From assembly GCF_036507355.1 (NCBI RefSeq), contig NZ_AP027877.1: 64,000 nt of DNA; one strand, written 5' to 3'. This document shows, in pieces, positions 29,455 through 30,350 of this stretch. The notes under the pieces were generated by a model. It was given only the letters and a program-made list of their open reading frames with translations, was not told where the DNA came from and searched no databases. Each line of letters opens with the position of its first letter. Position 1 is the first letter of the stretch. The stretch comes from Escherichia coli. GTDB taxonomy: Bacteria > Pseudomonadota > Gammaproteobacteria > Enterobacterales > Enterobacteriaceae. The position numbers and the translations under genes are program-made.

Positions 29455-29665
29455 TATCCGGCATCGGTGCACAACCGCCGGATGCGGCGTAAACGCCTTA
29501 TCCGGCCTACCGTTCAGGCGCAGATTTGTAGGCATGATAAGACGCGCCAGCGTCGCATCAGGCATCCGCGCACAACCGCCGGATGCGGCGTGAACGCCTT
29601 ATCCGGCCTACGGTTGAGTGCAGTTTTGTAGGCATGATAAGACGCGCCAGCGTCGCATCAGGCAT
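29455..29665. repeat. Tandem REP/BIME units
   Basis: Two ~100-bp near-identical units containing gccggatgcggcgt..cgccttatccggcctac and ttgtaggcatgataagacgcgccagcgtcgcatcaggca. Confidence 0.7.
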
Positions 29666-29675
29666 CTGCGCACAA

Positions 29676-30173
29676 TTATGAAATGATACGCTCCCCGGCA
29701 CTAAAATCCGTTATGTCTCCCGCCCAACCAATGGGATATAACCCTCGCGCCACATCGCGATGGAACGTTGAGAATGGCCAATCACTCACTTGCTTTACCC
29801 AGCCATGTTTCACTGGATTTATATAAATATAATCAACATGATGTCGGTAATCTGTGGTATTGCGAATGGCATGCTCCCAAAAACGCGGTTGCCAGATATT
29901 TTTCAATCCGCAAGCATGGGTGAACTGCTTTTTAATCTCCCGCCAGCGAGAGGAAAAATCATCATCGCTTTCGGGTAATGTCCATATGCAATGCATATGC
30001 TCCGGCAAAACGACCCAGGCGTTAATTTCAAAAGGTCTGTCTCGCTTAACGTTAATAATGGCGTTACGGAGCGTCTGGAACTGGGTGGTCAGAAGATGGC
30101 TTCGACGATTCCGTAAATTTACCGTGAAAAACCATGTTCCCCCCTTGATGTAATACCGACGATATTCCGACAT
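29676..30173 (-). CDS. rayT: REP-associated tyrosine transposase (165 aa)
   Basis: MSEYRRYYIKGGTWFFTVNLRNRR.. ; flanked by REP units on both sides. Confidence 0.85.
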   Translation of the reverse strand: MSEYRRYYIKGGTWFFTVNLRNRRSHLLTTQFQTLRNAIINVKRDRPFEINAWVVLPEHMHCIWTLPESDDDFSSRWREIKKQFTHACGLKNIWQPRFWEHAIRNTTDYRHHVDYIYINPVKHGWVKQVSDWPFSTFHRDVARGLYPIGWAGDITDFSAGERIIS

Positions 30174-30249
30174 AGCGACTCCTTTTTCTCAACGGTAAGA
30201 GGAAAAGGAAAGGTCGGCAATGAGGTGATGGAATAACGGGAAAGCGGCT

Positions 30250-30350
30250 CGCAAAAACGCACAGATTTGTAGGCATGATAAGACGCGCCAGCGTCGCATC
30301 AGGCACCTGCGTACAACTGCCGGATGCGGCGTGAATGCCTTATCCGTCCT
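30250..30350. repeat. REP unit on the other side of rayT
   Basis: Same tgtaggcatgataagacgcgccagcgtcgcatcaggca..ccggatgcggcgtgaatgccttatccg motif. Confidence 0.65.

Follow-up and report, generated by a model that had tools for sequence, protein, structure and literature searches.

The REPtron is an arrangement that was reportedly described by Nunvar in 2010. Descriptions are also given in Ton-Hoang et al. 2012 (PMC3333891) and Messing et al. 2012 (PMC3479197, PDB 4ER8). In E. coli and Shigella, a single tnpA-REP locus lies between yafL and fhiA (lfhA), with a 5′ side that invariably consists of one BIME and a 3′ side in which the number of BIMEs is variable (PMC3333891). The K-12 enzyme, TnpA-REP, has been studied in vitro, where it binds and cleaves single-stranded REP/BIME DNA and carries out strand transfer (PMC3333891, PMC3479197). 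The role proposed for RayT is the mobilization and amplification of BIMEs in trans (PMC3333891, PMC8266576, PMC5581495).

Related systems share individual features with this arrangement. The IS200/IS605 insertion sequences, such as IS608 and ISDra2, have in common with RayT the HUH motif with a single catalytic tyrosine, the use of imperfect single-stranded DNA hairpins, and a 4-nt motif at the hairpin foot. Their transposase gene is bracketed by hairpins of equal strand polarity, as is rayT. In contrast to these elements, RayT is monomeric and extended at its C terminus (PMC3479197), and rayT is a single-copy, immobile gene bordered by arrays of a repeat that occurs genome-wide rather than by unique ends. 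The REPIN-RAYT systems of Pseudomonas (Group 3; Bertels and Rainey 2011, Bertels et al. 2017, PMC5581495) also combine a single-copy, vertically inherited RAYT with REP doublets. However, the E. coli RAYT belongs to Group 2 (PMC5581495), and the E. coli doublets pair two REP types (y and z2) and are organized in tandem BIME arrays. Finally, REP325, the source of naRNA4 (RF02564; Qian et al. 2015, PMC4550694), is built from the same y-linker-z2 unit. It lies at a different locus (yjdM-yjdN), and the units described here resemble it in sequence.

Organization of the Locus

The window analyzed is a 64,000-nucleotide stretch of E. coli DNA (contig NZ_AP027877.1, assembly GCF_036507355.1), and it contains one copy of rayT. 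The genes follow in the order lafU' (minus strand), lfhA' (plus), a repeat array, rayT (minus), a single repeat unit, yafL (minus), dinJ, yafQ, and dpaA. The gene order at 245–251 kb of E. coli K-12 MG1655 is identical, and the 165-aa gene there is annotated as rayT. The spacers are likewise matched: 222 bp between lfhA' and rayT and 175 bp between rayT and yafL in the window, compared with 223 and 176 bp in K-12. The gene rayT (yafM, tnpA-REP) occupies positions 29676–30173 on the minus strand and encodes a 165-aa HUH/Y1 single-strand DNA endonuclease, as assigned by NCBIfam and by a PDB match.

The boundary gene lfhA' (fhiA; 27741–29453, plus strand) is an N-terminally truncated homologue of the Flag-2 protein FlhA. 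It matches only profile positions 99–656 of Pfam FHIPEP, has the extent of the K-12 pseudogene, and aligns to it without gaps. The deletion junction between lfhA' and lafU' is that of K-12, also with no gap in the alignment. On the other side, the boundary gene yafL (30349–31098, minus strand), an NlpC/P60 peptidase, is located directly upstream of rayT and in the same direction.

The locus can be assigned with high confidence (probability about 0.95) to the E. coli chromosomal REPtron, in which rayT is embedded in a periodic array of the repeats that serve as substrate for its product. The features that define the REPtron in Ton-Hoang et al. 2012, namely tnpA-REP between yafL and fhiA, a single 5′ BIME, and a 3′ side with a variable number of BIMEs, were all found by synteny and by comparison of six strains. 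With the K-12 REPtron (yafL-rayT/yafM/tnpA-REP-lfhA/fhiA), the window has in common the site, the gene order, the layout of 4+2 REPs with a remnant, the catalytic and DNA-contact residues, and the locus-specific z2 variant GCATGAT. It differs from K-12 in the rayT allele, with 92.4% identity in nucleotides and 94.5% in amino acids, at two positions in the tip of the 5′ y REP, where the protein makes no contact, and in the lfhA' stop codon. The original prediction had named the gene rayT and the REP/BIME-flanked layout a known arrangement. Both statements hold, the latter on the basis of y and z2 REPs organized as BIMEs, synteny, and spacing equal to that of the K-12 REPtron (PMC3333891). The arrangement is thus an already-known one with the K-12 layout; it is ordinary and adds only another allele. 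The extent first proposed, 29455–30350, was roughly right, although the whole element of rayT and BIMEs reaches slightly further, from 29450 to 30352.

Repeat Units and REP Hairpins

Tandem Repeats Finder identified an array with a period of 100 and 2.2 copies at 29456–29675 (91% matches, score 370), which constitutes the 3′ BIME array as a whole. A repeat search added a further copy at 30259–30352, which is 93% identical to the reference unit at 29518–29611. Because rayT is encoded on the minus strand, the 2.2-copy array is on its 3′ side and the single unit on its 5′ side. The two tandem units of about 100 bp and the one across rayT that had been predicted are correct in number and placement, while the words "upstream" and "downstream" attached to them are valid only in plus-strand coordinates. 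The tandem units had also been called near-identical, which overstates their similarity: the measured identity is 91–93%, and exact matches extend over no more than 42 bp between the tandem units and 44 bp between the repeats on either side of rayT. Owing to a 1-nt indel in the longer linker, the two tandem units agree at only 68% of positions when aligned without gaps; the correct figure is the 91% given by Tandem Repeats Finder.

Each 100-bp unit is a BIME composed of one y REP, one inverted z2 REP, and two linkers. In total, four REPs and a gutted remnant are found 3′ of rayT, and two REPs 5′ of it. The repeats have the properties of E. coli REPs of BIME-2 type: they are imperfect palindromes of 30–40 nt, of y and z2 type, with GTAG at the foot, alternating and in tandem. 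A degenerate REP consensus pattern gave three matches in the 64-kb window, compared with 0.00 expected from 100 shuffles. This pattern recognized the z2 type only, since the loop region of y is shorter, and the y copies were found by blastn-short. With y and z2 consensus queries, blastn-short located six full REPs within 0.9 kb around rayT, which match the consensus at 94–100%, and about three more elsewhere in the window. The latter include a BIME at 756–823 and a lone y REP at 33549–33580, in the spacer between yafJ and gmhA. At the genome level, a REP-containing query finds a median of at least 33–37 places per E. coli genome, and 584 REPs are reported for K-12 (PMC3333891).

The 3′ array has the order y(−) z2(+) y(−) z2(+), with linkers of 16–17 nt and 12 nt. 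At its outer edge, where the array called by Tandem Repeats Finder starts, lies the 0.2 partial copy, a z2 REP remnant (29450–29475, plus strand) that has kept the GTAGG head, the tail, and the linker and has lost the hairpin core (about 24 nt). In strain AHB10, the z2 REP at this place is complete. The stop codon TAG of lfhA' (29451–29453) falls inside the GTAG of the remnant (29450–29453) and completes it, whereas the K-12 gene ends with TAA in a degenerate GTAA. The remnant is followed by a y REP at 29477–29510 on the minus strand, which has GTAG at its 5′ end on the rayT coding strand, matches the y consensus at 97%, and is predicted to form a single-stranded DNA hairpin of −12.2 kcal/mol (z −3.2). 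Next is a z2 REP at 29528–29565 on the plus strand (−9.7 kcal/mol, z −3.7), which has its 5′ GTAG on this strand, is an iREP when viewed from the strand of rayT, and carries the GCATGAT variant. The second tandem unit consists of a y REP at 29578–29611 on the minus strand, with a 100% consensus match (−12.2 kcal/mol, z −3.8), and a z2 REP at 29628–29665 on the plus strand, identified by the pattern, by blastn-short, and by its hairpin fold. The linker after this last REP extends to 29675 and directly abuts the rayT stop codon, which places the REP stem about 11 nt from the stop.

On the 5′ side, the single BIME begins with a z2 REP at 30269–30305 on the plus strand. This REP and the z2 REPs across rayT are direct repeats, and the 44-bp exact run corresponds to 29521–29564 and 30262–30305. 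The y REP of this BIME (30318–30352, minus strand) has its GTAG at 30352–30349, and the TAG stop codon of yafL (30351–30349) is the TAG of this motif, so that the REP begins at the stop codon. This y REP is the homologue of the K-12 REP that was co-crystallized with TnpA-REP, from which it differs at two apical positions. These tip changes account for the weaker predicted hairpin (−6.8 kcal/mol). The apical five base pairs and the loop of the co-crystallized REP make no contact with the protein (PMC3479197), and, judging from the sequence, there would be no reason to expect that recognition by RayT is lost. The 5′ BIME can also form a single long hairpin as a doublet (−22.5 kcal/mol, z −3.3).

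As single-stranded DNA, each of the six REPs folds into an internally bulged hairpin directly after the 5′ GTAG, with energies between −6.8 and −12.2 kcal/mol and z scores between −2.6 and −3.8. The stem differences between y and z2 fall at positions that are still complementary. The gene rayT is flanked on both sides by its cognate REP, that is, a bulged hairpin with a 5′ GTAG.

Function of the Repeats at the RNA Level

The repeats could also be of importance mainly as ordinary REP/BIME RNA elements, with their adjacency to rayT being incidental. They would then act either as 3′-untranslated hairpins, which attenuate read-through from yafL into rayT and protect mRNA, or as HU-binding transcripts of the naRNA4 type. 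Several features of the locus point in this direction. The stop codon of yafL is part of a REP GTAG, and that of rayT is followed, at a distance of about 11 nt, by a REP stem. The 3′ array is strongly folded as RNA of the rayT strand (−110 kcal/mol, z −4.85). Both complete units pass the gathering score of 59.5 of the Rfam model naRNA4 (RF02564) on the same strand, with 79.1 bits for the y-to-z2 unit at 29531–29608 and 65.1 bits for the 5′ BIME at 30272–30349. The naRNA4 model is in effect the y-z2 BIME unit, and these matches restate the identity of the repeat. In addition, a 2026 preprint describes REP325 as a dual terminator and stabilizer.

The same preprint, however, disputes the role of naRNA4 in organizing and compacting the nucleoid. 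More generally, a function in RNA accounts for the REPs and not for rayT. Six of the roughly nine REPs of the 64-kb window cluster around the gene, all the rayT-bearing loci compared have the 5′ BIME, and where hicB stands in place of rayT the BIMEs are gone too. An RNA function with incidental adjacency is consequently considered rather unlikely as the main explanation. It is compatible with the REPtron assignment as a second layer rather than being a true alternative to it.

As such a layer, the BIMEs that flank rayT, which belong to the 3′ untranslated regions of the yafL and rayT transcripts, would most likely form ordinary REP hairpin barriers, leading to partial termination and mRNA stabilization. 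Between the 5′ BIME and the gene, rayT has a unique leader (30174–30261, minus strand) with an AAGGAG Shine-Dalgarno sequence 7 nt before the ATG. A simple scan for a sigma-70-like promoter in this interval found none, and the promoter and terminator scan for rayT gave nothing above background. The REPs close to the stop codons, the strong RNA fold of the array, and the lack of a promoter-like site in these scans together suggest that the BIMEs probably act as the usual REP barriers in 3′ untranslated regions, as judged from their position, and that rayT may be read through from yafL.

RayT Protein and Proposed Mechanism

The protein scores 176 bits against NCBIfam NF047646 (REP-associated tyrosine transposase, REP_Tyr_transpos, an equivalog model), compared with a cut-off of 80. 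It aligns end to end with the crystallized TnpA-REP of MG1655 (PDB 4ER8), with 156 of 165 residues identical (94.5%). According to the list of active-site and DNA-contact residues in Messing et al. (PMC3479197), the active site is fully intact (H59, M60, H61, Y115, N119, H123, and E161), as are all the residues that contact the hairpin (R46, R78, K81, K82, Q83, T85, H86, K91, and R97). The nine substitutions relative to K-12 RayT (Q26H, Y32F, M34T, H37N, K41N, G69S, K107T, D149G, and V154I) include none at a residue discussed in PMC3479197. The exact protein of the window is already present in NCBI as E. coli RayT. The ratio dN/dS between the window and K-12 genes is 0.066, which indicates that rayT is under purifying selection and is a maintained gene rather than a relic.

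With Pfam at the default threshold, no family is assigned to RayT. At a relaxed threshold, the protein matches Y1_Tnp (PF01797) with 16.2 bits (E = 0.012), below the gathering score of 23. The relationship of RayT to IS200 transposases thus rests on structure and literature, and not on the Pfam scan. Taken together, rayT is a domesticated single-copy HUH/Y1 endonuclease related to the IS200/IS605 transposases.

The same features raise the question of an active insertion sequence of the IS200/IS605 type, in which the transposase gene and hairpins at the left and right ends would transpose together. The Y1/HUH nature of the enzyme, the weak Y1_Tnp match, and the equal orientation of the z2 REPs on both sides of rayT, which resembles the subterminal hairpins of IS608, are in agreement with such an element. 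Against it, the gene was found as a single copy per genome among 3574 complete E. coli genomes, invariably in the interval from yafL to lfhA; its 3′ boundary is a variable array and not a fixed end; and its transposition as a unit is not reported in the literature (PMC3333891, PMC5581495). An active element is very improbable, and it was rejected on the grounds of the single fixed copy and the sub-threshold Y1_Tnp score.

For the REPtron, the mechanism would follow that of K-12. Since the RayT of the window is 94.5% identical to the K-12 enzyme, the chemistry observed in vitro for the latter can be expected of this allele. By analogy, a RayT monomer would bind a REP folded as a single-stranded hairpin and read the 5′ GTAG together with the A/C-A/G bulge. 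It would then cut at a C|T dinucleotide in the neighboring linker or in the inverted REP. In this step, as in the K-12 enzyme, Tyr115 would attack while the HUH motif holds the metal, and the product would be a 5′-phosphotyrosine link. Strands could subsequently be rejoined or transferred. Through this activity, RayT would move BIMEs and amplify them locally, in trans and across the chromosome, with rayT itself remaining fixed. Mobilization of BIMEs by RayT in E. coli in vivo is a hypothesis. The numbers of REPs are similar in strains with and without tnpA-REP (PMC3333891).

Distribution and Copy-Number Variation

The gene rayT is present in 3574 of 5426 complete E. coli genomes, with a median of one place per genome and a maximum of two. 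Most of these places are chromosomal (3575), and nine are on plasmids. In the six rayT-bearing loci that were annotated, the 5′ side consists of one z2+y BIME in every case. The 3′ array, on the other hand, varies: two REPs are found in O157:H7, about three in EC2641, four in the window, four in K-12, four in a more complex arrangement in TB06051, and six in ST95-32. In the O157:H7 strain NE 1092-2 (L004), rayT (1549–2046) contains an internal stop and is annotated as a pseudogene, and there is only one BIME on the 3′ side. A second polymorphism of one 100-bp unit is seen in the yafJ-gmhA spacer of the window, which is 101 bp longer in K-12, the equivalent of one extra BIME unit.

Lineages that lack the gene are of two kinds, in which tnpA-REP is either replaced by hicAB or precisely excised with the BIMEs left behind (PMC3333891). 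Both were encountered. Strain YL03 has hicB at the locus and no REPs, while strain AHB10 lacks rayT and has an unbroken array of three z2-y units between lfhA' and yafL.

The original prediction had raised the concern that the tandem units could cause assembly or recombination artefacts. The first of these can be set aside: although the 100-bp units have a 42-bp exact run in common and their copy number varies between strains, a collapsed or expanded repeat deserves next to no credence, because the 4+2 REP layout and the spacer lengths recur in the finished K-12 MG1655 reference, the independent draft assembly GCA_905398585.1 has the identical repeat layout and copy number with 1 SNP in 1000 bp, the units differ at about 9% of positions, which is enough for read placement, and the array is only 220 bp long.

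Recombination at the repeats, in contrast, is borne out by the range of two to six REPs in the 3′ array across strains and by rayT-less alleles that keep an unbroken array. Exact runs of 42–44 bp are of sufficient length for occasional homologous exchange. The runs at this locus fit both the differences between strains in steps of 100 bp and the rayT-less allele with the unbroken array. It can be inferred that rayT was removed either by recombination between direct repeats or by RayT-mediated excision, as the junctions fit both. Owing to the geometry of the direct repeats, the locus is prone to gain and loss of units and to deletion of rayT.

Divergence of the Window Allele

The rayT sequence of the window is at most 96.1% identical at the nucleotide level to that of any of the 3574 rayT-bearing complete E. 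coli genomes, whereas the neighboring genes reach 98.6%. Relative to K-12, rayT has a dS of 0.36 and lies in a divergence hotspot at about 28.0–30.6 kb, which is 89–95% identical to K-12, compared with about 97–100% in the flanks. Divergence in this interval is two to three times that of the surroundings. The K-12 allele of rayT is itself only 90–95% identical to those of 1614 genomes. The gene is therefore highly polymorphic across E. coli, and the divergence is a property of the locus and not of the window. The allele is the only mildly unusual feature of this REPtron. It might be supposed that old rayT/REPtron haplotypes have been maintained or exchanged, for example, through co-evolution of RayT and REPs or import from another Escherichia lineage, rather than having arisen by simple drift, but this explanation is regarded as improbable.

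The adjacent lfhA' (27741–29453), which is annotated as a pseudogene, has a dN/dS of 0.03 and a dS of 0.19 relative to the K-12 fragment. From the low dN/dS, most of its divergence seems to predate inactivation or to have come from intact alleles.

Other Features of the Window

At 25409–26913, dinB is directly followed by yafP with an ATGA overlap of stop and start codons, and the yafN-yafO toxin-antitoxin pair, which occupies 759 bp in K-12, is absent. In the left 25 kb of the window, coverage by any one complete E. coli genome reaches 77% at most, and an IS5-like DDE transposase is located there (3494–4474). A type VI secretion island extends over 38561–51926 and holds hcp (49339–49857), a vgrG open reading frame without the first approximately 190 positions of the GPD domain (47531–49237), a gene for a DUF4123 chaperone-like protein (43299–44069), a Tle1-type phospholipase effector (40893–42953), and DUF2859. 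It is interrupted by two transposase open reading frames of the IS3 family (46688–47506 and 51114–51926). Coverage of the region of 37–62 kb in one place does not exceed 50% in any complete E. coli genome. Genes of CP4-type prophage remnants (YfjS/YafY lipoprotein, antirestriction protein, DUF932, and GTPase) are found at 12765–16475 and 52889–61939, where they adjoin tRNA-Thr(CGT) (16400–16475) and tRNA-Asp(GTC) (61863–61939).

Implications

The importance of this REPtron is small beyond its correct annotation. For such annotation, Rfam naRNA4 matches at this locus should be read as "BIME unit" and not as evidence of a small-RNA gene. The 100-bp units represent a genuine copy-number polymorphism between strains and not an assembly error, and the direct repeats around rayT account for the clean loss of the gene in some lineages. 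The REPtron is a textbook case of a domesticated single-strand transposase that has been retained beside the repeats it processes.
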